From: Squalus acanthias
Lineage: Eukaryota
NCBI GenBank assembly: GCA_030390025.1
Contig: CM059431.1
Span: 106,580,001 to 106,644,000 of the forward strand
Length of the DNA stretch: 64,000 bases
Direction of reading: 5' to 3'
The notes beneath the pieces were generated by a model that worked only from the letters and a program-made list of their open reading frames with translations, was not told where the DNA came from and did no database searches. Within the stretch, counting starts at the first letter, position 1; each line of letters opens with the position of its first letter. Positions 25,288 through 57,535 of this stretch are shown here, piece by piece. Position numbers and translations under genes: made by a program.

Positions 25288-28200
25288 GGGCTCGATTTTG
25301 CCATTGGGGGAGGGCTGGGGCGTGTCAGGTGGTTTTAAGGCCTGCAAGCAGCCTTGCTTCTTTGGAGACTTTAAACTTTATGCCCATTGTTGTGATCGCT
25401 TCATTCAGCAATTATATCAGCAGTAGGCCAAAGTGTGTTCCAAGGTTCGATGAGGCCTCCCTCCAAGCTCTGCTGGAGGGAGCAAGATCAAATAAGGAGG
25501 TGCCCTTCCTTTCCTCAGGGCAGAAAAAGCCTCCCCAGCAGACTAAAGCTGTGTGGATGCATGTGGCCCAGGAGGTCAACTCAATCCCTATGTGCCGCAG
25601 AACCTGGCTGCAGTGCAGGAAGTGGTTTCATGACCTTCTCCGCACAGGAAAAGTGAGTATGACTTTCCCATCACTCTCAATCTGATCCCCATCACCTCTC
25701 CTCACCAGCACTCTGCTTTGCCAACCTCTTCCTCCACATCCCACTTGACACTTACATCCCTGCACCCTTACCCATTCCCTCTCTCTCTATGGTCACATTC
25801 ACTTAAATATTCTACCATGCATCCCTCACACTCTCTATCACTGTGATGCAATGACAACAACTTACAACACACAGGGAGGGCCCTTTGTCTCCTTCTAAGC
25901 ATCTATGCTATGGATTCTCTACATTCACTCCTTCATTCTCACTCAAACTCCACTTGTGTCCCTCATTGCAGGAAAAGAGAGCCCACAATAAGAGGGAAAG
26001 AGCGAGGACAGGAGGAGGGCCACCCTCAGTAACCCAGCTCACCGCCTGGGAGGAGGCAGCCCTGGAAATCGCTGGTGTCGAGGAAGATTCGCAAGTGGGG
26101 GACGGACAGATGGGCGCATCACAGCAAGCTGGTGACAGATTAGTTTGGCATCTCTCTCATTGACATTGCATGAGTGACTGATAATGATTCTGATGCTCTA
26201 ACAGATTGACTTATGATCATCTGCACAATTCAATGTGCATGCAACCTTTACCCACATCTCTAACTCTTTCCTTTACTCCCCCACAGGACCATCAACAGCC
26301 CCCATCCCCACTGTCCAGGAGGAACAGCCTGAGCTTCAAGACTCCTCAGAGGAAGCTGCAACCTCTGAGGGCGCAGCGTCTGCAGAATTCAGCGCACCCA
26401 GCACCAGCGCAGACACTCACACCTCGGTGGGAGCTTCGCTAGATAGAATAGTGTTGTCACCTGGTGTATCACAGCTCACAAGTGAGCATCAGCAGTTGGT
26501 GGAGACAGGGACAGCAGTGGAGAGTCCTCATCGGAGGGCTCAGCTCGGCTCAGCTGCATGTCGACCCTGTGCCTCTGGGTCCATCCAGAAGGAGAGTGGT
26601 GCTGGAACTCCAGGAACAGGTGCAGGAGTTGCTGGCAGGTTTTGCCTCCAGGGTCGCTGCGAGTGTGGAGCGAATGGAGGAGTCCATCGAGAACATTGTG
26701 GAGGCATTGGCTCATGAACACATCACCACGGAAAGGATGGCAACCTCCGTGGAAAGGATGGCTACGGTAGAGGAGAGGATGGCTACGGTAGAGGAGAGGT
26801 TGGCTATGGCCATGGAGGAGCCAAGTCGGCAGAGTGTTGAAAACATGGTCATTGTTCAGAATAGCCTGGCATCTCTTGAGGAGCGATGGTCAGCTATTGA
26901 GCATAGAAACCAGACCTTCATGGAAGTCCTCTGGAGTAGGACTTCCAGTGCAGAAACGGGTCCTCATGGCCCCGCTGAAGTGCAGCAAGGTGCTGTCAAG
27001 CCACTTGCTAGCTCTGAAGTGGAGCTGACCCATGAGAGGGATGTTGGTGGTAGACAACAAGGAAGTGGGGGCTCCTCTCCAAGCACTCACACAACCATGC
27101 CACTGCAAAGCCCTAGGTCAGAGCCCCACCAGAGTCCTCACCCAACTGAGATGGGTGTCTCATCCCCTGCACAGCCGCAGGAGCAGCAGACTGTTGCCGA
27201 GCTCTCACAGGTTCGCAACCCCAGAGGACGGCCGCCAAAGCTGTCGAGACAGGAGCAGCAAGAAAGTGAGCAAGGGGCCTCCATTACTGCTGAAGCCACA
27301 GGGGAAGCACCACGTAGGAGCACGCGTAAGAGGAAGATAATGCACAAGTATTCACAAGGGTTGTCACTTGGGTGTTATGTTGTGTTTATTCTTGAAATGC
27401 CATCAGTTGCTTGTTGTGATAAAAAATTCTGATGGCAAACTGTTGAAGTTGTGGCCTGTGTCATTTCGCAAATGGCACTTCCACATTGAGGGCTTAGAGT
27501 GACTTGTAATTGTCAGTATGGTGGTCAGAGTGATAGGAATCCGCAGGTTCTTGTCGATGCTCTGGTAAGAAGGTGCGAGGCAAAAGTGTTTGATTGTGCA
27601 GGCTAAGCAAATCTGGCCAACATGAGTGCGTCCCTTGCATCCCAGGCAGCAATTCTGGCCTGTGCAGCTTCAGGTGGGTGAGCAGCAGCTTGACGCTGCT
27701 GTTGTTGCTGCTGTTGTTTATGGTTCTGCTGCTGCCGCGGCTGGTCTTCGTCTGAATCTAATGTTCAGGAGGAAAGGAAATAAATGGTTTCCATGCTTTT
27801 GGTATATGCCTCAGTTGAGGAAGCGCTCAGTCAAGGTGGGGAGAGGGGTTTCCCAGGAGGTCACACTGGAGATGGGTGTCAGGCTCCAAACTTCCACAAC
27901 AATGAGTATGCCTGCTAAAAGTTTCCCCAGACCTGAGACAACAACGTTCTGCCACCTGCAAATGATCATTGGTGAAAACTCCTTTTTAATGGTGGAGCTG
28001 CAGCTGTTAGTAAGCAATCCACTTGTGAGGCCGCCAGGATTAACTGGCGAATTCCAGAGGAGACATGCAGGCCGGGGGAAAAGTGTTAAAATCAGAATGG
28101 CCTCTCAAAATGGGATTATAGAGGCAATTAACTGGTTGTTAAGGGCCTTAAGGGCCTATTCCGCCTCTTGGAAGCGGGATGGAAACGGGGTCTGAAACCC

Positions 28201-28366: not shown

Positions 28367-29853
28367 TGTAGGGGGTGGTGGTGTGTGTCACCTTCACCTC
28401 TGACTTCTGAGCGGTTCGAATCGCTCCCACTCCCTTGGTTCTAGACCCTGGACTTATTTGGGGGTTGTGACAAAAAGTGCAGCAGACAACTGGTTTTGAT
28501 GCAAGAACTTTGATCTTTATTTAAGAAAGTAAAAACACAACACAAACACTCTTAACACTCTAAAAGTGGGGAACACTTCGGTACAAGCGAGGGAAATAAC
28601 ATTAGGAGAATACTTCACCCCTCCCAATCCCACTTCACTAGCTAGGTTGGACTCCAGAGGACCAGGGATGATACTCACCAGAATCCTTGACAGTTGGGCT
28701 GGTTCGTGGTTTTGGGGTTCACTTTATATGTCGGTTGGTGTCTGCCGTACCCCGTACGTGGTAGAGGACTTCAACTGCGTATCTGGTCAGTCTTCGCGAG
28801 TCCGCTGATGCGGTAGGGTGCGTATTGGATTTATCAGGTGAGTACCCACTTTTCTTTGGTTTAGAAGTAGGGTTTAGAGTTTTTTAAGGGAAAATCTTAC
28901 CCAGGGGTAAGTCAGGAGTAGATTGTAGAGTGGAAACTTTGCGGATCTTCGGTTTTTCTTCGAGTCGGTTTTCTTTGGTCGCGGTGGCCCAAATATTGGT
29001 ACTTGGTGTTTGGTTTGTTGTTTCATGAGGGCCTTGTTGCCGCGAGGTGTCCGATGGTCACTGAGGCGGTCGTTCTGGTTTCTTCACGTGTCGGCCTACT
29101 TTGTTGGATGGTCTGGCCTTCGAGCTGTCGAATTCCTGGCTAGACACGGAACGCTGAACGGTGGTGTTGTAGAACTGTGTTGCGGAGAGTGCCTCCATGG
29201 ATGTCTTCTTGTTCTTCCTTCCTCTTCTTTTTCAGGTTGAGAATGGGCCTTCAATTATACCCATTGAAGCTCCCTTATCTGCGCGTCAAATCAGGTCCCG
29301 GTCTTTGTTAGATTTTGGCGGGCTCGTTAACGGTAACTGGTTTGTTAAGGTGTGAAGTGGTTCCAGGATGGTCCCATCTTGTCAATTTGCCACTTAATCG
29401 TAGTTTGATTGTCCTTATGTTTTGGGTTTCTTGACTGGGCCTAGGATTTCTATAGAGTAATCTGAAGTAATCTGTTTTATGCATGTCTTAATGGGCTCTG
29501 TAACTTGGGGTAGAGACTGTTTTTCCTCGGGTTTATTGTTAGGATGCAAATGTCAGATAGGGGCCGATTTAAACTCCCAGCGTGGTCATGCGGTTCCCCA
29601 GACAGTTTCCATTAGCTCCAATACCCAAACTGTTTTTGCAGAGGTTTAACCCACCTTCCTTCACAGCCTTTTCTCCCTTACAAGTCCAGACATGTCTTTT
29701 AAAATACCAAATCTTGGTTTTTGCTCTAAAATGTCCTTCGGTTTAGGCCCAATGCACTTCACCACCCTGTAATAGCTAGAAAAGAGTCCAAAGTCTTTTT
29801 CCTTAGGGGTTTTCTTAGAGTTAGGGGGATCTGTGAATTTTGAGAATCTTACA
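28367..29853 (-). mobile_element. Solo LTR (1487 bp) related to the LTRs of 49599-56513
   Basis: TGTAGGGGGTGG...TTACA termini with a 4-bp TSD GGAC. Both ends are visibly similar to the LTR at 55408-56513. Confidence 0.9.
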
Positions 29854-31862: not shown

Positions 31863-34628
31863 CATAGAATCATAGAATCATAGAAGATAGGAGCAGGAGT
31901 AGGCCATTCGGCCCCTCTAGCCTGCTCCGCCATTCAATGCGATCATGGCTGATCATCCAAATTCAGTACCCTGTCCCTGCTTTCTCCCCATATCCCTTGA
32001 TCCCTTTAGCCTTAAGAAATATATCCAACTCCTTCTTGAATCTATTTAATGAATTGGCCTCTACTGCCTTCTGTGGCAGAGAATTCCACAGGTTCACCAC
32101 TCTCTGGGTGAAAAAATTCCTCCTAATTTCTATCCTAAATGGCTTACCCCTTATCCTTAGACTGTGACCCCTGGTTCTGGACTCCCCGACCATCGGGAAC
32201 ATCCTTCCTGCATCTAGTTTGTCCTGTCCTGTCCTGTCAGAATTTTATAAGTTTCAATGAGATCCCCTCTCATTCTTCTAAACTCCAGCGAGTATAAGCC
32301 CAATCGACCCAATCTCTCTTCATACGTCATTCCTGCCATCCCAGGTATCAGCCTTGTGAATCTTCGCTGAACTCCTTCCATGGCAAGAACATCCTTCCTC
32401 AGATAAGGCAACCAAAACTGCACACAATACTCAAGGTGTGGTCTCACCAAGGCCCTGTACAACTGCAGCAAGACATCCTTGTTCCTGTACTCAAACCCTC
32501 TCGCTATGAAGGCCAACATACCATTTGCCTTCTTAACCGCCTGCTGCACCTGCATGCTTACCTTCAGCGACTGGTGCACAAGGACACCCAGGTCTCGTTG
32601 CACTTCCCCTTAACCCAATCTATTGCCATTCAGATAATAATCTGCCTTTCTGTTTTTGACACCAAAGTGGATAACCTCGAATTTATCCACGTGATATTGC
32701 ATCTGCCACGCTTCTGCCCAATCACCCAACCTGTCCAAATCATCCTGGAGTTTCTCGGCATCCTCCTCGCAGCACACACGCCCACCCAGTTTTGTGTCAT
32801 CTGCAAACTTGGAGATATTACATCTAGTTCCCTTGTCTAGATCATTAATATATATTGTGAATAGCTGGGGTCCAAGGACCGATCCCTGCGGTACCCCACT
32901 AGTCACTGCCTGCCACTCGGAAAAAGACCCATTTATTCCAACTCTTTGCTTTCTGTCTGCCAACCAGTTCTCTATCCAAGTCAATACCTTGCCCCCAATC
33001 CCATGTGCCTTAACTTTACACGCTAATCTCTTATGCGGGAACTTATCAAAAGCCTTTTGGAAGTCCAAATACACGACATCCACTGGTTCTCCCTTATCTA
33101 TTTTACCAGTTACATCCTCAAAAAATTCCAGTAGAGTAGTCAAGCATGATTTACCTTTTGTAAATCCATGTTGACTTTGTCCGATCCTGTCACTGTTTTT
33201 CAAGTGCTCAGCTATTACATCTTTTATAATGGACTCTAGCATTTTCCCCACTGCCGATGTCAGGCTTACCGGACTGTAATTCCCCGTTTTCTCTCTACCA
33301 CCCCTTTTGAATAGTGGGGTAACATTAGCTACCCTCCAATCTATTGGTACTGTTCCAGATTCCATCGAATGTTGGAAGATGATCAGCAATGCATCTACTA
33401 TTTCTAGGGCCACTTCCTTAAGTACCCTAGGATGTAGATTATCAGGCCCTGGGGATTTATCAGCCTTCAATCCCTTCAATTTCCCTAACACCATTTCCCT
33501 ACAAATACTGATTTCTTTCAGTTCCTCCCTTTCATCAGACCCTATGTTCCCCAACATCTCTGGGAGGTTATTTGTGTCCTCCTTTGTGAAGACAGAACCA
33601 AAATATGTATTTAATTGGTCTGACATTTCTTTGTTCCCCATTATAAGTTCCCCTGATTCTGACTGCAAGGGATCTATGCTTGATTTCACTAATCTTTTTC
33701 TCTTCACATATCTATAAAAGCTTTTACAGTCAGTTGTTATGTTCCCTGTAAGCTAACTCTCGTATTCTATTTTCTCCTTCTTAATTAATCCCTTTGTCCT
33801 CCTTTGTTGAATCTTAAACTGCTCCCAATCCATAGGGTTACTGCTTTTTCTGGCCAATTTATATGCCCACTCCTTGGATCTTATGCTATCCCTAATTTCC
33901 CTTGTTAGCCATGGTTGAGTCACCCTTTTTGTTTTATTCTTATGCCAAACTGGGATGAACAAATTCTGTAGTTCGTCCATGCGGTCTTTGAATGTTTGCC
34001 ATTGCCTATCCACCATCAACACTTTGAGTGATATTCCCCAATCAATCCTACCCAACTCGCACCTCATACCATCGTAGTTTCCTTTATTTAAATTCAGGAC
34101 CCTAGTCTCTGATTCAACTACTTCACTCTCCATCCTAATGAAGAATTCTATCATATTATGATCGCTCCGACCCAAGGGGCCTCGCACAACAAGATTGCTA
34201 ATTAATCCTTTCTCATTGCATAATACCCAGTCTAAGATGGCCTGATCTCTGGTTGGTTCCTCGACATATTGGTCCAGGAAACCATCCCGTAAACACTCCA
34301 GGAATTCTTCCTCCATTGTATTATTACTAATTTGGTTAGCCCAATCTATATGTAGATTAAAGTCACCCATGATGACTGCTGTGCCCTTATTGCACGCTTC
34401 TCTAATTTCCCTTTTAATGCCATCCCCAACCTCCGCATTACTGTTTGGAGGTCTATATATCACTCCCACTAATGTTTTCTGCCCTTTGTTATTTCTCAGT
34501 TCAACCCATACAGATTCCACATCATCAGAGCTAATATCCTTCCTTTCAATTGTGCTAATCCCCTCTTTAACCAGCAATGCTACCCCACCTCCCTTTCCTT
34601 TTTGCTTATCTTTCCTGAATATTGAGTA
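31863..34628 (-). mobile_element. CR1 LINE, 5'-truncated ORF2 (APE endonuclease + RT), frameshifted
   Basis: GDFN, SDH, YLDFQKAFD, GVPQGSVLGP and FADD motifs, with an (ATTCTATG)n tail. Confidence 0.95.
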
Positions 34629-34800
34629 TTGGCCAAGACTCCAGGGATAACTCCCCTGCTCTTCTTCAAAATAGTCTAATGGGATCTTTTACGCCCACCT
34701 GAGAGAGCAGATGGGGCCTCGGTTTAATATCTCATCTGAAAGATGACACCTCCAACAGTGCAGCACTCCCTCAGTACTGCACTGAAGTGTCAGCCTAGAT

Positions 34801-43904: not shown

Positions 43905-46900
43905 CTGAGGAAGAGAGTGTTGGAAGACCAGGGCCTCAAACCCAGCACCAAGGTCATGGTTTACAGAGCAGTATTGATACCCGCCCTCCTGTATGCTTCA
44001 GAGACATGGACCACGTACAGCAGGCACCTCAAAGCACTGGAGAGGTACCACCAACGCTGCCTCCGCAAGATCCTGCAAATCCATTGGCCGGATAGGCGCA
44101 CCAATGTCAGTGTTCTCGCTCAGGCCAACATCCCCAGAATCGAAGCTTTGACCACGTTCGATCAGCTCCGATGGATGGGCAACATTGTCCGCATGCCCGA
44201 TACGAGACTCCCAAAGCAAGCGCACTACTCGGAGCTCCGACACGGCAAGAGAGCCCCAGGTGGGCAGAGGAAACGCTTCAAGGACATCCTCAAAGCCTCC
44301 TTGAAAAGTGCAACATCCCCACCGACACCTGGGAATCCCTGGCCCAAGACCGCACAAAGTGGAGGAGAAGCATCCGGGAAGGCGCCGAACACCTCGAGTC
44401 TCTTCGCCGGGAGCAAACAGAAGTGAAGCGCAAGGAGCGCACGTCAACCCAAGCACCCCACCCACCCGCCCCTTCAACCACCGTCTGGCCCACCTGTGAC
44501 AGAATCATAGAATCATAGAAGATAGGAGCAGGAGTAGGCCATTCGGCCCGTCTAGCCTGCTCTGCCATTCAATGCGATCATGGCTGATCATCCAAATTCA
44601 GTACCCTGTCCCTGCTTTCTCCCCATATCCCTTGATCCCTTTAGCCTTAAGAAATATATCCAACTCCTTCTTGAATCTATTTAATGAATTGGCCTCTACT
44701 GCCTTCTGTGGCAGGGAATTCCACAGGTTCACCACTCTCTGGGTGAAGAAATTCCTCCTCATTTCTGTCCTAAATGGCTTACCCCTTATCCTTAGACTGT
44801 GACCCCTGGTTCTGGACTCCCCGACCATCGGGAACATCCTTCCTGCATCTAGTTTGTCCTGTCCTGTCAGAATTTTATAAGTTTCAATGAGATCCCCTCT
44901 CATTCTTCTAAACTCCAGCGAGTATAAGCCCAATCGACCCAATCTCTCTTCATACGTCATTCCTGCCATCCCAGGTATCAGCCTTGTGAATCTTCGCTGA
45001 ACTCCTTCCATGGCAAGAACATCCTTCCTCAGATAAGGCGACCAAAACTGCACACAGTACTCAAGGTGTGGTCTCACCAAGGCTCTGTACAACTGCAGCA
45101 AGACATCCTTGTTCCTGTACTCAAACCCTCTCGCTATGAAGGCTAACATACCATTTGACTTCTTAACCGCCTGCTGCACCTGCATGCTGACCTTCAGCGA
45201 CTGGTGCACAAGGACACCCAGGTCTCGTTGCACTTCCCCTTCTCCCAATCTATTGACATTCAGATAATAATCTGCCTTTCTGCTTTTGACACCAAAGTGG
45301 ATAACCTCGCATTTATCCATGTTATATTGCATCTGCCACGCTTCTGCCCAATCATCCAACCTGTCCAAATCATCCTGCAGTTTCTCAGCATCCTCCTCGC
45401 AGCACACACGCCCACCCAGTTTTGTGTCATCTGCAAACTTGGAGATATTACATCTAGTTCCCTTGTCTAGATCATTAATATATATTGTGAATAGCTGGTG
45501 TCCAAGGACCGATCCCTGCGGTACCCCACTAGTCACTGCCTGCCACTCGGAAAAAGACCCGTTTATTCCAACTCTTTGCTTCCTGTCTGCCAACCAGTTC
45601 ACTATCCAAGTCAATACCTTGCCCCCAATCCCATGTGCCTTAACTTTACACGTTAATATCTTATGCGGGACCTTATCAAAAGCCTTTTGGAAGTCCAAAT
45701 ACACCACATCCACTGGTTCTCCCTTATCTATTTTACCAGTTACATCCTCAAAAAATTCCAGTAGATTAGTCAAGCATGATTTACCTTTTGTAAATCCATG
45801 TTGACTTTGTCCGATCCTGTCACTGTTTTCCAAGTGCTCAGCTATTGCATCTTTTATAATGGACTCTAGCATTTTCCCCACTACCGATGTCAGGCTTACC
45901 GGTCTGTAATTCCCCGTTTTCTCTCTACCACCCTTTTTGAATAGTGGGGTAACATTAGCTACCCTCCAATCCATGGGTACTGTTCCAGATTCCATCGAAT
46001 GTTGGAAGATGATCAGCAATGCATCTACTATTTCTAGGGCCACTTCCTTAAGTACCCTAGGATGTAGATTATCAGGCCCTGGGGATTTATCGGCCTTTAA
46101 TCCCTTCAATTTCCCTAACACCATTTCCCTACAAATACTGATTTCTTTCAGTTCCTCCCTTTCATCAGACCCTATGTTCCCCAATATCTCTGGGAGGTTA
46201 TTTGTGTCCTCCTTTGTGAAGACAGAACCAAAATATGTATTTAATTGGTCTGACATTTCTTTGTTACCAATTGTTAGTTCCCCTGATTCTGACTGCAAGG
46301 GACCTATGCTTGATTTCACTAATCTTTTTCTCTTCACATATCTATAAAAGCTTTTACAGTCAGTTTTTATGTTCCCTGGAAGCTTACTCTCGTATTCTAT
46401 TTTCTCCTTCTTAATTAATCCCTTTGTCCTCCTTTGTTGAATCTTAAACTGCTCCCAATCCTCAGGGCTACTGCTTTTTCTGGCCAATTTATATGTCCTC
46501 TCCTTGGATCTTCTGCTATCCCTAAATTCCCTTGTTAGCCATGGTTGAGTCACCCTTTTTGTTTTATTCTTATGCCAAACTGGGATGAACAAATTCTGTA
46601 GTTTGTCCATGCGGTCTTTGAATGTTTGCCATTGCCCATCCACCATCAACCCTTTGAGTGACATTCCCCAATCAATCCTACCCAACTCGCACCTCATACC
46701 ATCGTAGTTTCCTTTATTTAAATTCAGGACCCTAGTCTCTGAGTCAACTACTTCACTCTCCATCCTAATGAAGAATTCTATCATATTATGATCGCTCTGA
46801 CCCAAGGGGCCTCACACAACAAGATTGCTAATTAATCCTTTCTCATTGCATAATACCCAGTCTAAGATGGCCTGATCTCTGGTTGGTTCCTCGACATATT

Positions 46901-47918
46901 GGTCCAGGAAACCATCCCATAAACACTCCAGGAATTCCTCCTCCATAGTATTGTTACTAATTTGGTTAGCCCAATCTATATGTCGATTAAAGTCACCCAT
47001 GATGACTGCTGTGCCCTTATTGCACGCTTCTCTAATTTCCCTTTTAATGCCATCCCCAACCTCCGCATTACTGTTTGGAGGTCTATATATCACTCCCACT
47101 AATGTTTTCTGCCCCTTGTTATTTCTCAGTTCAACCCATACAGATTCCACATCATCAGAGCTAATATCCTTCCTTTCAATTGTGTTAATCCCCTCTTTAA
47201 CCAGCAATGCTACCCCACCACCCTTTCCTTTTTGCCTATCTTTCCTGAATATTGAGTACCCCTGGATGTTGAGTTCCAGACTTGGCCACCCTGGAGCCAT
47301 GTTTCAGTAATCCCAATCAAATCATATTCATTTACCTCTATTTGCGCATCTAATTCATCCACGTTGTTCCGAATGCTCCTTGCATTAAGACACAAAGCCT
47401 TCAGGCTTGTGTTTTTAATGCTCTTAGACCTATTAGAATTAGTATTTACTGTGGCCATGTTTGATTTAAACCGTTGTTTTCTCTGACTGCCACTTTTGTT
47501 TTTCTCCTTCCTATCTTTTGCTTTTATCCTTGTTTCCCTTTCCTCTGTCTCCCTGCTCAGGTTCCCAACGCCCTGCCATTTTAGTTTAAACCCTCCCCCA
47601 GAGCACATGCAAACACTCCCCCTAGGACATCGGTCCCAGCCCAGCCCAGGTGTAGATCGTCCGGTTTGTACTGGTCCCACCTCCCCCAGAACCAGTTCCA
47701 ATGCCCCAGGAATTTGAATCCCTCCCCCTTGCACCATTCCTCTAGCCACGTATTCATTTGAAATATCCTTCTATCCTTCTATTTCTACTCTGACTAGCAT
47801 GTGGCACTGACTAGAACAGAGACTGTAGGTCCCGCATTGGTCTCATTAGTCACCTGAGAACTCATTTTTAATGGGGAAGCATGTCATCCTCGGTTCCGAG
47901 GGACTGCCTAAGAAGAAG
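43905..47918 (+). mobile_element. RTE (BovB-like) LINE 3' part, interrupted by a CR1 (pieces 43905-44500 and ~47816-47918)
   Basis: KVMVYRAVLIPALLYASETW...QLRWMGNIVRM...RLPKQ, with a (AAG)n tail. Confidence 0.9.
44501..47810 (-). mobile_element. CR1 LINE: end of ORF1 (SGNH/esterase-like) plus almost complete ORF2
   Basis: LNARSI, GITETW and GDFN motifs, plus a 735-aa open frame containing the RT domain (44598-46805). There is one stop at 46812 and a frameshift near 47280. Confidence 0.95.
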
Positions 47919-48627: not shown

Positions 48628-48712
48628 GATTATCCTGACGCTCGGCCTATTTGTTACCACTTGACCTAGCAGTGGAAAAAAATCTTTCATTGTTTACCTT
48701 CTCAAAATCTTT
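48628..48712 (+). repeat. Left copy of the 85-bp direct repeat (right copy 56527-56611)
   Basis: GATTATCC(T/C)GACGCTCGG...CTCAAAATCTTT, with 2 mismatches. Confidence 0.95.
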
Positions 48713-49598
48713 AAAGTAAGACAAAGGTCCTCTACCAACCTACCCCCGCCACACAGTACTGCCCCCCGATTATCAAAATCCACGACAAGGCCTTGGACAA
48801 CGTGGACCACTTTCCATACCTCGGAAGCCTACTGTCAACAAGGGCAGACGTCGACGAGAAAGTCCAACACCGCCTTCAGTGTGCCAGTGCAGCCTTTGGT
48901 CACCTGAGGAAGAGAGTGTTTGAAGACCAGGACCTCAAATCCGGCACTAAGCTCATGGTCTACAGAGCAGCAGTGATACTTGCCCTGCTGTATGCCTCAG
49001 AGACATGGACCATTTGCAGCAGGCACCTCAAAGCACTGGAGAGGTACCACCAACGCTGTCTCCGCAAGATCCTGCAAATCCATTGGCAGGATAGGCGCAC
49101 CAACGTCAGTGTTCTCGCTCAGGCCAACAACACAGCATCGAAGCTTTAACCACGCTCGATCAGCTCCGATGGACAGATCACATTGTCCGCATGCCCGATA
49201 CGAGACTCTCAAAACAAGTGCTCTACTCGGAGCTCCGGCACGGCAAGAGAGCCCCAGGTGGGCAGAGGAAATGTTCAAGGACACGCTCAAAGCCTCCTTG
49301 AAAAAGTGTAACATCCCCACCGACACCTGGGAATCCCTGGCCCAAGACCGCACAAAGTGGAGGAGAAGCATCCGGGAAGGCGCCGAACACCTCAAATCTC
49401 TTCGCCGGGAGCAAGCGGAAGCCAAGCGCAGGCAGCGCAAGGAGCGCACATCAACCCAAGCACCCCACCCACCCGCCCCTTCAACCATCATCTGCCCCAT
49501 CTGTGACAGAGACTGTAGGTCCCACATTGGACTCATCAGTCACCTGAAAACTCATTTTTAATGTGGAAGGAAGTCATCCTCAGTTCCGAGGGACTGCC

Positions 49599-50699
49599 TA
49601 TAGGGGGTGGTGGTGGAAGGGTCAGCCTTACCCCTGACACAGTGAGCGGTTCGAATTGCTCCCACGCCCTAGGTTCAGACCTTGGACTTATTTAGGGGTT
49701 GTGAATAAAGATGCAGTAGACACCAGGTTCCGATGAAAGAATTTTGACTTTTATTAAAAGAAAAAGGTAACAAACTTAAAACACACTTAACACTTAAACA
49801 GGTTGGAGAACACACGGTACAGGCGAGGGAGAAAGACAATATACAAAAAACCCTTATCCCTCCCAAAAATCCCACTATCTAGCTAGGTTTCCGTTTCAGG
49901 AGATCAGGGATACTGCTCACCAAACAAGGGTTTTAACAGTGCGAAATCCAACCAGGTAAGTTGATGGTGATCTGGTCGTCGAGTGTCTTCCTGGAACGTG
50001 CTGCTTCTGGAACAGAGCTGAGAGGGAGCTGTACCAGTGTTGTCAGAGAGTCCGGAGAGAGTGCTCTTGGGGAATTATGCCCCCCAATTATACTTGTTCA
50101 GCTCCTTTGTTCTTTTTTTCGCTCCCAGAACCCCTTACTAAAGATGGTTTCGTGCTGAAGTGATTTGGTTTCAGTTGAGGCCTGTTCATTCCATTGTCTT
50201 GGTTTTGCGGGCTTGTTAAGTTTTGATGGGTTTAACTTGGTGTTAAAAATGTTCTGAACTCGCTTCTTACTGAACTGTTGTAACTGCTTGATGGGCCTTC
50301 AATTATGCTAAACCAAATCAAATCCTGGTCATTGAAAGACCTCGTCAACAATAACGGCTTTTTACTGAGTGTCAAATGGCTTGCGTCCTGTCGATCTGTT
50401 GTTTAATCGGAGTTTGCATTGTCCTCGTGTTTTGGGTTTCTTGCTGGGCCTAGCACTCCTATCTTTATGCGTCTCTTTAATGGGTTCTGTGTTTTGGGTG
50501 GGGCTGCCTTCTCCCAGGGCCTATTGTCCAAATGTTAATGTTTGCTGGGGCTTGAATTCCAGCCTTTTAAAATGCCAAAGCTTGGTTTTGGTCTTAAATT
50601 CCTTCTGTTAGGCCCAAATGCATTTTTATCACTCTGGGGTAGTTCCAAAGTCCTTTTTCCTTAGATTTTTGGGAATCTGCAAATTTTGGAAACTTTACA
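49599..50699 (-). repeat. 3' LTR
   Basis: Direct repeat of 55408-56513; begins TGTAAAG on the minus strand directly after the PPT. Confidence 0.95.
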
Positions 50700-50711
50700 G
50701 TCCCCCCTCCG
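50700..50711 (-). other. Polypurine tract
   Basis: GGAGGGGGGAC abuts the 3' LTR. Confidence 0.9.
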
Positions 50712-50988
50712 ATACATTGAGTTCACTACAGTATCGTCCTGGGTGGACAAAATTCCTGATCCCCGAAAACCAACGTTCCCCTGTAATACCTAAATTAAAA
50801 CCCAAACATACATTCCCCTTTAAATGTGGTGTTTTAGGTACATACAGGTAAGAAAATCTTTATTTCACAACCAAGCATGGAGAGGGTCCGACACCCCTGC
50901 ACTGCTTGGGAAAACACACATATCTTTATTAAAAAGAACAAAACACAAAAAAAAACAATCTTTATTCAGGAACACAGAATAAAAAAAT

Positions 50989-52480
50989 TCAAACAGGTGT
51001 ATCTCTCTCCACCTCAGCATAATGCTTCTTCCAAGTCCTTTCATTTCGGAACTGTAGTATTCTGCCCTTTCCCTTGCAGTGAGTGCACAACAGGTACAAC
51101 ACTATTCCCAGTTGGCAAACTACGAGGATGTGGGAAGCCATTCTGACCCATGAAGGGACCTCTATGTTTTCAAAGATGTCCCACCAGGGTGGGACTGTGA
51201 TACCTTGAATCTCTCTCTCTATCTCGTGTGTTTTCTGTTCTAAAGTGTAGAAATGTTTTTGTGATAGCGCTACAGCTTTTAGTAACTTGGTAAGGCGTTC
51301 TGGTAGAGGGGGAATTTCATAGCCAAAATGTGCTACATATTTTTGCAGGTTGGTGAAATTTTGTGTTACAGTGAGGTGAACAGTGGAGGGTTCAGGAATG
51401 GGGACAATCCGTTCCTGGGCCACTTGAACTTCTGCCTCGGGTTTAAAGCAGAAACTGCTGTCACTTACCGGACACCAGGTTTACTGTCCATGCTGGTAGT
51501 GAGGCGCGCTGGTGGTGACACAATATGTCCCACCTCCTATATATGCTATCTGTGGAGGAACATGGTCTTGTGCCATTACCTCCATGGTACAGTTTATAGG
51601 TCGTGCGCCAGCAGCTTTAAACCCGCACTGTGGTTTAGAATAGGCGTTCAAGTGCTGGGGACACAGTATCATGTGTGCTCCCCGGCTACGGCACCCGGAG
51701 AGGTCTGTACCTGTCATAGCGTGCTCCCACTTTATGACATAAGGTGGGACCGCTGTGAAATGGATGTGTGCACCCCCTTGAATGACTCCAATGTTCTCCA
51801 CCCTGTATACCGGTGCGGGTCGGGCTGTCCCACCCATGACCGGCATCCTCACCACTATCCCCATGATAGTGTGATTGGAACACCCACAATCTACTGGTAC
51901 AGGGTAGGCTTCAGAGGCTAGACGGAGCTGACACGGGCTTAGTGAATTCTCAAATGGGTGGAGGGCTGTGAGGTGCTTGTTGCTGATCCAGGAGGGGACT
52001 AAACCTTGCTTTAAATCCTCCAGTTTACTCCGGCCCTCGCCTAGCAACCATGCCCCGTACAGTACGCACACCTCATTCTGTGCAGCCTGGTCTGATGCAT
52101 TCCTGTCCTCCCGTATGAGTGCATTTACTGTCTTTGCGTGCCTTTCCAGCTCAGCAATGATTTTTTCAAAAGGACCATCATAGCTTGGTCCTCGTGTAAC
52201 TCTGAGCCCACTACTGTATTTTCATCCATTAAGATTTTGCATAATTGTGTTTTTAAACCGTTTATTTGTGTCTGCAATTCTATGTCATCCAGACTGTTGA
52301 TGACAGAGGATCCTGTATTTTATGCTGTGAAAACATCATTCCAGGCTCCCCTCAATTGTCTCCCCGTATTGCTAAAATACTCAGTGTGTGCAGTGTACAG
52401 TTCTGTTTTGTCTATGTTTGCGAAATCGAACTCGTAGAACTTCCTGAACATTTCTCTCAACAGGGCCTGGTCGAAATCCC
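50989..52480 (-). pseudogene. env: env-like class I fusion glycoprotein, with stops and frameshifts
   Basis: RQLR|GAWNDVFTA cleavage and fusion-peptide-like segment, heptads, a Cys-rich domain (51481-52071), a second heptad, PWWD and the TM segment ILVVCQLGIVLYLLC. Confidence 0.75.
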
Positions 52481-52712
52481 TTCTGTAAGGAGACACAAGA
52501 GCATATAGCCAGGTCCCGAGTAGATTCTCTGGCTTGGGTGAAGCATAGTCGGGTCTTGCGACCTCAACTCAATACAAACACTCTTGAAACTATAACATTT
52601 AAAACTACCAACCACCTTACTTAAAATTTAACTAAAAACACCCAAACTTAACAATCTCAAAATTTAGCAACAAAAGCTATGTACATTCGCCGCCCGTCTC
52701 CGAGCGGCCAGA

Positions 52713-53579
52713 CTAAACCCTGTACGGGCTGCAGCACACTACTCTCTTTGGTGTGGCCGCCCTGTCCTGTACCTTTGGTCCCTTGCAGCCTATGGCCTCT
52801 GTCCTCAGATCGATCCCTGACTTGAGGGGCGGCCCTTTTAAATTGGGGAGCTGGTGACCACGGTTTCTTTGGCTGTGGCGTACATGGGGAGCTTCTAAGG
52901 GCTCTGGCTGGTGGGGGTTTTCTGGCTGGTGGGTCTTTAACATGAGCCACTGCCCCTGTTGTGTGGTCTGTGAATCTTCCACTACCACTGGCGGGGGATT
53001 TCTATCCTCAGGCTGTACCTCTTCTAAACCTGTGTCAGGGTCAGGTGACTCTTCGCAGCCTGGTGCTGCAGGCTGAGGGTCCTCGCCCTCAGGTCCCACC
53101 TCCTCTAAATCCCAGAGGATTGGGGGAATGTCCCAAACGGTGGGTGGGGTGGCCCCTCCCCTAAGACAGGCCGCCGCCCCTGCTTGTGCAGTCTGTGAAT
53201 TTGGTCCTGCTGCAGGCTGAGGATTTCTATCCTGTTTTAGTTTGGGCAACTCTGCTACCATGGCTTGCAACTGCGGGGTGGTGAATTCCCCCGGGGTTGT
53301 TGAGCAAACCATCCCTCTGGCTTTGAATAGGGCTTGAGTCAGACCTTTTATCCTTTCCTCACAGGGCCCATGGTTTAAATCCTCATACCCCCTGCTCCTG
53401 GCTACCCTGTAGGCTGCCTTTATGTCTCTAAGCTGCCCCTCTAGCCCATCTACTTTCCCCGTTAAGCGGGCGTTCTCCTCCCGTAAGGTCTGCTCATTTA
53501 ACCTGGCCTCCTTACGGGAGGTCTCTTCCTGTGCGTGTCTTTCAAGGGGACACAGGTAGACAGGCTGCGCTGGTTCTAG
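52713..53579 (-). CDS. Open frame continuing gag after TGA-CTAG: Gag-like coiled-coil duplicate plus a Pro/Glu-rich region
   Basis: Manual translation LEPAQPVYLCPLERHAQ...LREENARL...AAYRV...HGPCEERI...KARG continues into ORF 52713-53312 with no stop. Confidence 0.6.
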   Translation of the reverse strand, partial: LEPAQPVYLCPLERHAQEETSRKEARLNEQTLREENARLTGKVDGLEGQLRDIKAAYRVARSRGYEDLNHGPCEERIKGLTQALFKARGMVCSTTPGEFTTPQLQAMVAELPKLKQDRNPQPAAGPNSQTAQAGAAACLRGGATPPTVWDIPPILWDLEEVGPEGEDPQPAAPGCEESPDPDTGLEEVQPEDRNPPPVVVEDSQTTQQGQWLMLKTHQPENPHQPEPLEAPHVRHSQRNRGHQLPNLKGPPLKSGIDLRTEAIGCKGPKVQDRAATPKRVVCCSPYRV

Positions 53580-55405
53580 TCATAGGTCTGGGTTGTATGG
53601 GGCTGATGGGGTCAGAGCACCGGTGGTTGCTGCTACCTTCCCTGGGCCAGTCAATAGGGACCTCATGGCGTCCAACAATGACTCGACCGTGGCGGGAGGG
53701 TTCCCTGTCTCTGCCTTTTGGGCTGGGGCTGAGGAATTATTTCCCTTGTTATCCTTCCAAGGATTCTTATACTCCTTCCTCCAGTGTCCATCCTTCCCAC
53801 ACCCATAACAGTTAAGCTTTGTGCTGGAAGGGTTATTCCCTTCCTGATGCCATTCCTTCCTACTCTGGCTGAGTTTTATTTCATGCACTTTTCCCTTTTG
53901 TGGGGGCTCTTCAGCTCCTCTACAGTTCCGGTAGGCCAGGTTCAGCTGTCTGACCACTGCCTCCTCGGTGACCCGGGGGTCTTTCGGGTCAAACCAAACC
54001 TCAGCCTGGGTTTTGATCCATGGCAAGCTGTTTGCCACTAGGCTACGGAGCCAGTGGGCCAGCTCGTCCCAGTTTAGGTGAGCCCTGTTAAGATCCCCAC
54101 TACAAGCACCCCTGTACATGGGCCACAGCCTGTCAGCGAAAGCCTGTGGGGTCTCTCCTGCGAGCTGCACTGTTTTCTCCACCTGGGAGAAAGGACTTCC
54201 CTCATTCATCACCATGGCCTCTAAAACTTCCTCTCTGATGGCAGCATATCCATTCTGTCCTCTCTTGCTCTCAGCAGAGAGGGACTGGTATCGTCTGCTA
54301 TCCAGTGAGAACAGGAGCATTTTTGCCATCTTGGCATCATCACAGTTGTTGATGCCTGCTGCCTGTTCTACTTCTATGAAGTGAACTGAGGGGTCCCCTT
54401 GTTGGGTGAGTTTACTCAGGTGGCTTACCATAACCCTAAGCTGTTGTGTACCGTGGGGAGCCACGAACTGGTTTTGGAGGGGTCCCCCATCCACGTCATC
54501 AGCGGGTGGGCCAAACCTTTGCTGCCGGGCCGGGCACATCGGCCCCGGTCCCAGCCTCTCTTGCGGGGGTTTTTCCACCTCAGCTTCTGCCCCTAAATCC
54601 ACCCCTTCTTGCCAGACTTCGTTAAAGCTTGGCGCTACGGGTGGTGGTCGTGGGCCCTCCTGCTCCTCAACCGGGTCGTCCCTTGGCACTATCTTTGGTG
54701 TTTGAACTGTTCTCCCCAGGTTCCCTGTAAAGTCGACCTGGGCTGCACTTGGGCTTATGAGGCACGCCACGCCACGCCTCTTGCCTTCCTTAGAGCAAGG
54801 TTGTGAGTCTCTATCTGCTTCTGGCAGGGGCCATGGTCTGCATCCTCAAACCCCTGTGCGCTCATTACCTTATAGGCTGCCTGTAAGCCTTTTACTGTCT
54901 CCTCCTGCTCTCTTACTTGTTTTGCCAGGCGGGCATTCTTTTCCCGCAACCTCAGCTCATTGTTCTTGGCCTCTGTGACCTGACACTGTAAATAATCCTG
55001 CCGGGTCTTATACTCTCCCGCTAACTGCACCCTTTCCTGGTTTAGCGCCTGCAATGCTAACAGTAACTTCTCCCCTGCTAGGGCCTTTGTTTGGACTTCC
55101 AGGGCTGTCTCCCGAATCTCAGCTGCCTGTGCTTCAACGAGTCAGTCCAAAGGTTGGATCTGTTTCTTGAAGCACATCAGCCAGACTGCCTTTTCTAAGG
55201 ATGTTTTATGATCCTTCCCTTCTGTCCATTTAGCTGCTGCATCTACCGGGCGCCCAGTCTTTAACAGATTAGTGACCCACTTCTTTTCCATATTCACTTT
55301 GCTGAATACATAATCTGAAATCCTTTCTTCCATTACAGTTCTCTCTTCCGAATCAGTGTCTACTGCTTCACAACCCTTTTGCCAAGTCCGTGCCACGGTC
55401 GCCAT
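53580..55405 (-). pseudogene. gag: gag-like gene: coiled coil, capsid and zinc knuckle
   Basis: MHR-like QLAGETPQAFADRL and degenerate CCHC CYGCGKDGHWRKEY. One stop at 55142 and a frameshift near 54770. Confidence 0.85.
55385..55404 (-). other. Primer binding site, tRNA-Arg(UCG)-like
   Basis: TGGCGACCGTGGCACGGACT lies 3 nt after the 5' LTR. It resembles the complement of the vertebrate tRNA-Arg(UCG) 3' end (recalled sequence). Confidence 0.7.
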
Positions 55406-55407
55406 TA

Positions 55408-56513
55408 TGTAGGGGGTGGTGGTGGTAGGGGTCAGCCTTACCCCTGACTCAGTGAGCAGTTCGAATCGCTCCCACGCCCTAGGTTCAGACCTTGGACTTA
55501 TTTAGGGGTTGTGAATAAAGATGCAGTAGACAACAGGTTCCGATGAAAGAATTTTGACTTTTATTAACAGAAAAAGGTAACAAACTTAAAACACGCTTAA
55601 CACTTAAACAGGTTGGGGAACACACGGTACAGGCAAGGGAGAAAGACAATATTAAAACAAAACCCTTATCCCTCCCAAAAATCCCACTATCTAGCTAGGT
55701 TTCCGTTTCAGGAGATCAGGGATAATGCTCACCAAACAGGGGTTTTAACAGTGCAAAATCCAACCAGGTAAGTTGATGGTGGTCTGGTCATCGAGTGTCT
55801 TCCTGGAACGTGCTGCTTCTGGAACAGAGCCGAGAGGGAGCTGTGCCAGCGTTGTCAGAGAGTCCGGAGAGAGGGCCTCTTGGGGAATTAGACCCCCCAA
55901 TTATACTTGTTCAGCTCCTTTGTTCTTTTTTTCGCTCCCAGAACCCCTTACTAAAAATGGTTTCATGCTGAAGTGATTTGGTTTCAGTTGAGGCCTGTTC
56001 ATTCCATTGTCTTGGTTTTGCGGGCTTGTTAAGTTTTGATGGGTTTAACTTGGTGTTAAAAATGTTCTGAACTCGCTTCTTACTGAACTGTTGTAACTGC
56101 TTGATGGTCCTTCAATTATGCTAAACCAAATCAAATCCTGGTCATTGTAAGACCTCGTCAACAGTAACGGCTTTTTACTGAGTGTCAAATGACTTGCGTC
56201 CTGTCGATCTGTTGTTTAATCGGAGTTTGCATTGTCCTCATGTTTTGGGTTTCTTGCTGGGATTAGCACTCATATCTTTATGCGTCTCTTTAATGAGTTC
56301 TGTGTGTTGGGTGGGGCGGCCTTCTCCCAGGGCCTATTGTCCAAATGTTAATGTTTGCTGGGGCTTGAATTCCAGCCTTTTAAAATGCCAAAGCTTGGTT
56401 TTGGTCTTAAATTGCCTTATGTTAGGCCCAAATGCATTTTTATCACTCTGGGGGAGTTCCAAAGTCCTTTTTCCTTAGATTTTTAGGGATCTGCAAATTT
56501 TGGAAACTTTACA
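55408..56513 (-). repeat. 5' LTR
   Basis: TG...CA termini, followed by the PBS. Confidence 0.95.
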
Positions 56514-57535
56514 TGCCTAAGAAGAAGATTATCCCGACGCTCGGCCTATTTGTTACCACTTGACCAAGCAGTGGAAAAAAATCTTTCATTGTTTACCTTC
56601 TCAAAATCTTTCATCATTTTGAAAATCTCTGTTAGATCCAATTCTTTGAGCCTTTCTTCTAAACTATAACTTATTCTTTGTATCATTTCTAGTGAATCTC
56701 CATTGTACACCATCATAAATCCTTCCTATAATAGAGTGCCCAGAACTGTGCATAATAATCCAACTGTAGTCCAACCAAAACCTTGTTCAAATTCTGCATG
56801 ACTTCCTTGCTTTTAGATTTAAGGCTCATATACAAAACCTAGAATCGCATTTACCTTTCTATGGGCTTGTCTACCTGTTCTCTCATTTTCAAAGGTCTAA
56901 TAATTTGCACCCCTAGATCACTCTGTCTCTTCATGCTGTTATGAATCTTATTTTTTCTGCATACTTCCTTTCACAAAATCTACTATTTCACATTGCTACC
57001 TTCCTGCCCACACTGCTAATTTTTAATAGCATATACTTTAGCTATTGTAAAAAAAAAAGTCTCATGTGACATCTTATCGAGCAGGTAGAAAAGACTATAA
57101 AAAAGTAAATGGGATTCTCGGTTTTATATATAAGAACCTTAAATCCAAAAGCAAGGATTCTGAAGATCTATATATACACACACACAAAATAAACCACGTT
57201 CTCTTTATCAACTCAAAATGGCTGCTTGTGCTTGTGGGGTCTGGAGTACTTAAACTGACCAGAGATCTACATCATGAGAGTTACCAGCAAATACAAATAC
57301 AACTATACTATACCAAAGGCTTTTAGCCGGACTTAACCCAACTGATGGCCAAACTGTTACACTGGCACCCGCCCCCAGATTCTGCCATTTTCCTGGCAGT
57401 CCTGCCTCCATATCCGACTCCCCAGGGCTGGCAAGATCGCGCCCCTCATCTCTCTCCTGTGACTAAGTCACAAAATATCATAATTGTCCCAGAGAGACCT
57501 GCCAGCCACTTGCCTGTCTTCCTACTTGTAATAAT

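Follow-up and report, generated by a model that had tools for sequence, protein, structure and literature searches.

In a 64,000-nucleotide stretch of the Squalus acanthias genome (GCA_030390025.1, contig CM059431.1, positions 106,580,001 to 106,644,000 of the forward strand; hereafter the window), a provirus-like element of ~6.9 kb occupies positions 49599-56513 on the minus strand. Its 5' long terminal repeat (LTR; 55408-56513, minus strand) is bounded by TG...CA and carries a TATA-like box at 55905 and an AATAAA at 55565. The 3' LTR (49599-50699, minus strand) is 96% identical to it, with a single base altered in the outer terminal dinucleotide. A primer-binding site (PBS; 55387-55404, minus strand), putatively of the tRNA-Arg type, begins 3 nt inside the 5' LTR boundary and reads from 55404 downward; ARAGORN returned no tRNAs, and Rfam just three sub-threshold chance matches. 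A purine run abutting the 3' LTR at 50700-50710 (minus strand) forms the polypurine tract (PPT). Inspection of the element ends revealed the target-site duplication (TSD) TGCC on the left (49595-49598) and on the right (56514-56517). All three signals (TSD, PBS and PPT) had been called intact in an initial annotation made from the sequence alone, and all three are indeed present, with the reservation that the 3' LTR dinucleotide is altered. The element has the two LTRs, TSD, PBS and PPT of a non-autonomous LTR element and no protease, reverse transcriptase (RT), RNase H or integrase.

The duplication, a 4-bp integration footprint, lies in the 3' tail of a long interspersed nuclear element (LINE) fragment, presumably of the RTE type, and excision of the element in silico restores a continuous LINE tail. 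The 5'-truncated host fragment sits between the two copies of an 85-bp direct repeat (48628-48712 and 56527-56611, 97.6% identical), which is unusually long for a target duplication. Alignment of the two LTRs gave 1061 matches and 39 substitutions in 1100 columns plus 7 gap columns, equal to a Kimura two-parameter (K2P) distance of 0.036. Fifteen differing columns fall within the first 300, in agreement with the two ~1.1-kb LTRs and the dozen or so differences in ~260 nt noted initially. Sharks evolve more slowly, and for this reason the insertion may be older than the ~8 million years (My) that the divergence would suggest at a rate of 0.018 in 4.09 My. That rate is implied by Table S1 of PMC7947760, in the portion of that source available.

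Absence of pol and relatives of the element in other data

The six interior frames, with stops read through as X, matched 0 Pfam families, and a scan of the same frames for seven motifs gave one chance match, on the antisense strand. Nothing above the cut-off was obtained with Pfam for 10 open reading frame (ORF) pieces. The same Pfam library detected RVT_1 in three of six other long ORFs of the window, a positive control that consists of better-preserved LINE ORFs and not of decayed LTR pol. Gag homology (55372-53598) and env homology (52469-50992) leave ~1.1 kb between the gag stop and the env remnant, whereas pol needs at least 3 kb. Because no Pfam family was found in six frames and the slot is only ~1.1 kb, pol is absent from the element rather than decayed. 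The profile search for decayed pol, laid down beforehand as a check, found none in the interior, and the lack of recognisable protease, RT, RNase H and integrase reported in the initial annotation was borne out.

Parts of the interior occur in 20 public sequencing runs from 8 studies and 7 organisms (one run carries no organism label), four of the seven at a word share of at least 0.28. The best word share, 0.38, is that expected for ~3% divergence from collapsed family contigs, and no RNA run was listed among them. The contigs of 4 of the 20 runs were compared with the element, 32 of 30,622 pieces and 24 of 1,847 loose ends being listed. Matching contigs numbered 4398, 6537, 1085 and 18545 and covered 30, 30, 30 and 28 of 30 bins, respectively; with thousands of contigs in four runs covering the interior, the assumption of a multi-copy family was supported. 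One contig of run X2 matches the unique right flank without substitution at a depth of 10, and an env contig that is 97% alike has a depth of 509. These values are only a hint of tens of copies, as depth is not copy number. Run X18 covers the interior deeply and leaves the middle of the LTR uncovered, and because of this it is taken to hold a related subfamily. Within the window, a solo LTR at 28367-29853 (1487 bp, TG...CA, TSD GGAC) is related to the element LTR, with 74.5% identity over 330 nt at one end and ~67% across two further blocks.

Gag, ORF X and env

The gag remnant (53580-55372, minus strand) comprises an N-terminal domain, a predicted coiled coil, a Pro-rich linker, a predicted capsid and a degenerate zinc knuckle, and was delimited by tblastn with P0018 (46% and 58%). 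This unbroken protein of 619 residues was the only gag relative found; none was found in viral contigs, in a search that is weak for spotting a pol-bearing partner. The language-model neighbours of gag in Atlas are the Retrotrans_gag, Ty3_capsid and zf-CCHC clusters (0.92-0.95), and a comparison with the Protein Data Bank (PDB) gave weak matches to capsid and nucleocapsid proteins of murine leukaemia virus (E 0.015-0.6). The gag structure model was poor, with a predicted local distance difference test (pLDDT) value of 35, and unfit for fold search; the coiled coil was judged from sequence. The remnant is damaged by an in-frame stop at 55142-55144 and a frameshift near 54773-54815, and its zinc knuckle is without the fourth ligand.

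Because the intact P0018 and the window gag end at the same position, the stop at 53580-53582 is taken to be the natural gag stop. This stop, with the sequence behind it from 53583 on, also follows different gag ends in 13 contigs (nine in X2, four in X6). The stop lies in a UGA-CUAG context (53576-53582, minus strand), a candidate readthrough signal that is followed by a predicted hairpin, and this context occurs only once among the 71 TGA triplets of the sense strand. Experiments have shown readthrough at the UGA-CUAG motif in genes of vertebrates and in alphaviruses, according to the part of PMC4132726 available. The hairpin has a fold z of -2.8, and in a scan of 229 windows it belongs to the 12 that reach z <= -3. 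A coarse tiled fold scan had presented the hairpin as a unique structure; this was rejected after a finer scan, in which it was one of about six structured regions. The UGA-CUAG stop may represent an old gag-pol readthrough site.

Directly behind the stop and in the same frame as gag lies ORF X (52713-53579, minus strand) with 288 open codons, made up of a leader of ~22 codons, a fragment of a second gag type and a Pro/Glu-rich tail. The gag fragment combines a coiled coil with the first capsid helix (about 53513-53230) and breaks off at 53230, inside that helix. Its coiled coil (53513-53313) shares 46% amino acid identity with the coiled coil of the element's own gag, and 76 of 201 nucleotides differ (62% identity), spread over the codon positions as 22/25/29. 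Because of the number and spread of these differences, a simple deletion at the locus cannot have made ORF X; the same 62% identity led to the rejection of the element's own gag, recently duplicated, as its source. In all four runs compared, contigs carry an ORF X-type coiled coil and first capsid helix that run into a capsid like the element's own, with the joint at 54398/53230 (54397/53233 in X18). Since these contigs continue into capsid, a second gag type exists and is the donor of the ORF X piece. The tail found no match in relative searches, and the best Atlas score of ORF X (0.85) pointed to no family. A 64-nt internal repeat (75%) was observed in the tail, at 52946-53008 and 53170-53233.

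ORF X could also be an ordinary accessory gene or Gag-related ORF of an autonomous parent, around which just the enzyme domains were deleted. An open and in-frame ORF X fits this, as do the extra coiled-coil ('smc') regions of lokiretroviruses (PMC7947760). However, the lokiretrovirus records in the available part of that paper fuse the smc region in front of gag and not behind it, and the ORF X piece ends in the first capsid helix exactly where other contigs enter the capsid. An accessory gene is accordingly regarded as quite improbable.

The env remnant (50989-52469, minus strand) derives from an F-type fusogen whose 5' part is missing, and aligned by tblastn with P0017 (67%), P0001 (84%) and P0007 (30%). 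From the end of F2 it runs through a basic cleavage site, a fusion peptide, heptad repeats and a Cys-rich core to a transmembrane (TM) segment near 51140-51080. It is preceded by a T-rich spacer (52470-52712, minus strand; 35% T), the probable env splice-acceptor and start region, with a deletion junction near 52473. Env homology begins at 52469, ~225 residues into the full-length relative P0007, and two X6 contigs (records 27 and 28) that approach this point from either side match as far as 52471 and 52475, after which they continue with 154 and 374 letters unlike the element. Because homology starts at 52469 and the X6 contigs carry extra sequence there, the window copy, as judged from its sequence, has lost the env signal peptide region and N-terminal part. 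In the full-length shark relatives P0007 and P0004 the missing part corresponds to the 230-270 residues before the cleavage site; the source record of P0007 bears the label 'Ig-like domain-containing'. The remnant is further interrupted by two stops, one at 52320-52322 and one at 51481-51483, and by a frameshift near 52161-52167, and no intact env, from signal peptide to TM segment, is found in the window copy. A 204-residue antisense ORF at 51307-51918 was rejected as a gene, being a shadow of env without a Pfam family. The statement in the initial annotation that the element carries gag and env is correct in so far as both are recognisable, but both are remnants with stops and frameshifts; the further suggestion that env was retained fails for the window copy, where the 5' part is gone and two stops and one frameshift interrupt the rest.

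A 246-residue piece of env matched 16 proteins, 15 of which are true relatives, the other (P0016) being an unrelated chance match. Eight of the 10 relatives examined are named and come from five shark genera (Pristiophorus, Mustelus, Scyliorhinus, Chiloscyllium and Heterodontus), in keeping with the shark host proposed earlier. The remnant is 67-76% identical to the unbroken relative P0017, and a model of this protein (pLDDT 58, predicted template-modelling score 0.29) was applied in a Foldseek search. The 10 best matches were the F proteins of human metapneumovirus, respiratory syncytial virus and measles virus, with E values from 1e-4 to 7e-4 and a TM-score of about 0.2; foamy-virus Env (PDB 8rm1) came 11th with an E value of 9e-4. 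The model thus suggests that the env of this close relative folds most like the F protein of pneumo- and paramyxoviruses. Neither the 10 ORF pieces nor the 16 proteins of the env search matched PF00523 or another fusion-protein family of Pfam. A PDB sequence search with env gave 0 matches and one with an env profile gave coiled-coil noise only, and coiled coils dominated a wide search with VIA, in which F proteins were not in the top 50. Env relatives were not found in metagenome contigs, again in a search weak for spotting a pol-bearing partner.

Origin of the pol-less state

The element is likely a decayed copy of a multi-copy, non-autonomous, pol-less LTR lineage. Pol was probably lost before this insertion, because a contig from another organism links both sides of the ORF X junction: in this X6 contig of depth 330 the tail side of ORF X, which reaches 53235, is joined to the coiled-coil side, which resumes at 53374, with 43 letters on the shorter side. 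The initial annotation had proposed a non-autonomous family that is mobilised in trans and kept env. This proposal is upheld as regards the absence of pol, the multiple copies and a loss of pol that, given the junction in another organism, probably preceded the insertion; it is not upheld for env, which is broken in the window copy. Neither the chimeric ORF X nor the UGA-CUAG context had been noted in that annotation.

Loss of pol at this locus only, after insertion, by deletion or ectopic recombination and without any pol-less lineage, is very improbable. The copy is old enough to have rearranged, given its LTR distance, and carries at least one other deletion, that of the env 5' part. Yet the ORF X junction is linked in the high-depth contig of another organism, the insert stems from a diverged gag type, and the frame of ORF X has stayed open and in phase with gag, although breaks have gathered in both gag and env.

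Several observations weigh against the proposed pol-less lineage and its readthrough product. The X6 linking contig is a single record, in which the middle 138 nt are unaligned, and the junction between leader and coiled coil (53513-53579) is bridged by none of the 32 pieces listed. No listed contig spans the whole element, which also speaks for a loss confined to the locus, and the lineage is seen through contigs. Searches with the capsid region and with ORF X turned up no relative of greater length (Gag-Pol), so that no helper was seen, although this is weak evidence. Readthrough rests on the motif and a moderately ranked hairpin, and five other interior regions fold equally well or better.

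For a pol-less lineage the following course can be envisaged. The ancestor would have been a retrovirus-like element of sharks whose Gag had a coiled coil and whose Env was of the F type. Before the insertion, recombination would have swapped nearly all of pol for a scrap of another subfamily's gag, placing ORF X in the pol slot. The signals required in cis, the LTRs, PBS and PPT, were kept, and the element RNA would have been packaged, reverse-transcribed and integrated by the protease, RT/RNase H and integrase of a pol-bearing relative. Readthrough at UGA-CUAG would have yielded a minor Gag-ORF X fusion in place of Gag-Pol, possibly acting in cis, by analogy with the intracisternal A-particle (IAP) element I-delta-1. 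After or shortly before the insertion, the env 5' part would have been lost, and stops and frameshifts would then have gathered. Judged from its reading frames, the window copy can no longer give rise to a complete Gag or a complete Env.

Whether env mattered to the lineage leads to a further explanation, a true infectious satellite that kept a working env under selection and spread in particles between cells or species using only the Pol of a helper, the window copy being a decayed exception. The identity of the remnant to the unbroken P0017 is in favour of this, and in each of the four runs env ranks with the parts of deepest coverage, with other copies reading differently at some break sites. 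On the other hand, the window env is without a start and lacks ~225 or more residues relative to P0007, and other env-internal deletions occur in contigs (joints 52161/52680 and 51170/52330). Moreover, env flanks are also kept in non-coding D-type elements (PMC10924933, in the part available), so that retention alone is no proof of selection. An infectious satellite is thus possible but doubtful. Still less likely is an old helper-dependent lineage of several shark species with its own Gag and F-type Env that borrows only Pol, in which the Gag-ORF X readthrough fusion, with its second coiled coil derived from the Gag of another subfamily, would be a selected adaptor for co-assembly with the helper Gag-Pol.

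Elsewhere in the window, two minus-strand LINE copies (31866-34688 and 44501-47303) are 97% identical over 2135 nt and both contain RVT_1, the latter with an open stretch of 737 codons. Two inverted copies of a repeat (1-1170 and 25906-27124, ~78% identical) have long ORF-like stretches; Pfam gave no match for 26452-27429.

Relation to described elements

The comparisons below refer to the portions of the cited papers that were available. By analogy, the element is of a known kind, the non-autonomous endogenous retrovirus (ERV), to which bovine D-type ERVK, recombinant koala retrovirus (recKoRV), the mouse early transposon (ETn), IAP I-delta-1 and Bhikhari also belong. In bovine ERVK[2-1-LTR] D-type, koala recKoRV and mouse ETn/MusD, the central segment is swapped for a piece of an older retroelement, the LTRs remain in place together with the flanks from gag and env, and the elements are mobilised in trans; their size of ~6.8 kb compares with 6.9 kb here (PMC10924933). 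Since pol-less ERVs with gag and env flanks have been described there, the suggestion of a new kind of helper/satellite pair was abandoned. These mammalian elements differ in being class I/II ERVs with known helpers, whereas in the shark element the swapped piece is a gag fragment in an open in-frame ORF, env is F-type and a helper was not seen. In mouse IAP I-delta-1 (PMC6466679), which is non-autonomous as well, a deletion has created a novel ORF fused to gag, and the fusion protein aids retrotransposition in cis. That element is without env and part of its gag is removed, whereas the shark gag keeps its natural stop, with ORF X behind a readthrough-type context.

Lokiretroviruses (PMC7947760) have an N-terminal coiled coil in Gag, as predicted from sequence for the shark element, and share with it an aquatic vertebrate host and an Env like the F protein of Mononegavirales with basic cleavage site, fusion peptide, coiled coil and TM segment; for the shark Env, the relationship to Mononegavirales F is indicated by the modelled fold of P0017. 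Points of difference are the CCHC knuckle of the shark Gag and the long extra N-terminal part of P0004 and P0007, the full-length Env relatives from sharks. The defining traits of lokiretroviruses are their place in the RT phylogeny and a dual RNase H (tether and second RNase H), for which the shark element has no pol to compare, and because these traits lie in the absent pol the element was not filed as a lokiretrovirus. That paper, in the part available, does not report them in cartilaginous fish; its rows for Scyliorhinus, Callorhinchus and Rhincodon are without an asterisk, which was read as non-detection. Zebrafish Bhikhari (Bik-1 and Bik-2; bioRxiv 10.1101/2024.03.25.586437) is pol-less as well; it is related to lokiretroviruses and complemented in trans, and has a coiled-coil Gag of 617 residues as compared with 619 in P0018. 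It differs in that Bik-2 has gag only, without pol and env, Bik-1 is a single ORF with a Gly-rich tail in place of the zinc knuckle, and there is no ORF X.

An F-like fusogen in an LTR element is also present in the Ty3/gypsy errantiviruses with F-type env (bioRxiv 10.1101/2023.10.26.564294) and in foamy viruses (Env, PDB 8rm1), and the features of the shark Gag resemble Ty3/gypsy capsids. Because it has no pol, the element cannot be placed among the errantiviruses, the spuma-like or the lokiretrovirus groups. The errantivirus survey covers invertebrates and, in its available text, makes no mention of sharks, nor do the corresponding parts of PMC9040795 and PMC12440569. Chondrichthyan ERV RTs belong mostly to clade III according to PMC11089739, which in the part available does not describe the element. 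F-type-env elements in sharks, or a chimeric ORF X, were not found in print in a search that left Repbase and most subscription journals outside, so that an earlier entry may exist.

As a decayed fossil, the window copy has little to offer that better-preserved copies would not show. Most of the known non-autonomous ERVs that outcompete their helpers come from mammals and zebrafish. The presence of F-type-env retroelements in cartilaginous fish, to which a shark lineage would point, falls in a gap in the published lokiretrovirus range and bears on the origin of that envelope. If the Gag-ORF X fusion did serve as an adaptor, the lineage would amount to a retroviral satellite that has an envelope and a recruitment protein of its own, in hosts of a class for which no F-type-env retroelements were found in print. 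A shark lineage with the central-swap plan in several organisms would, if true, show the generality and longevity of this parasite-of-parasite strategy.

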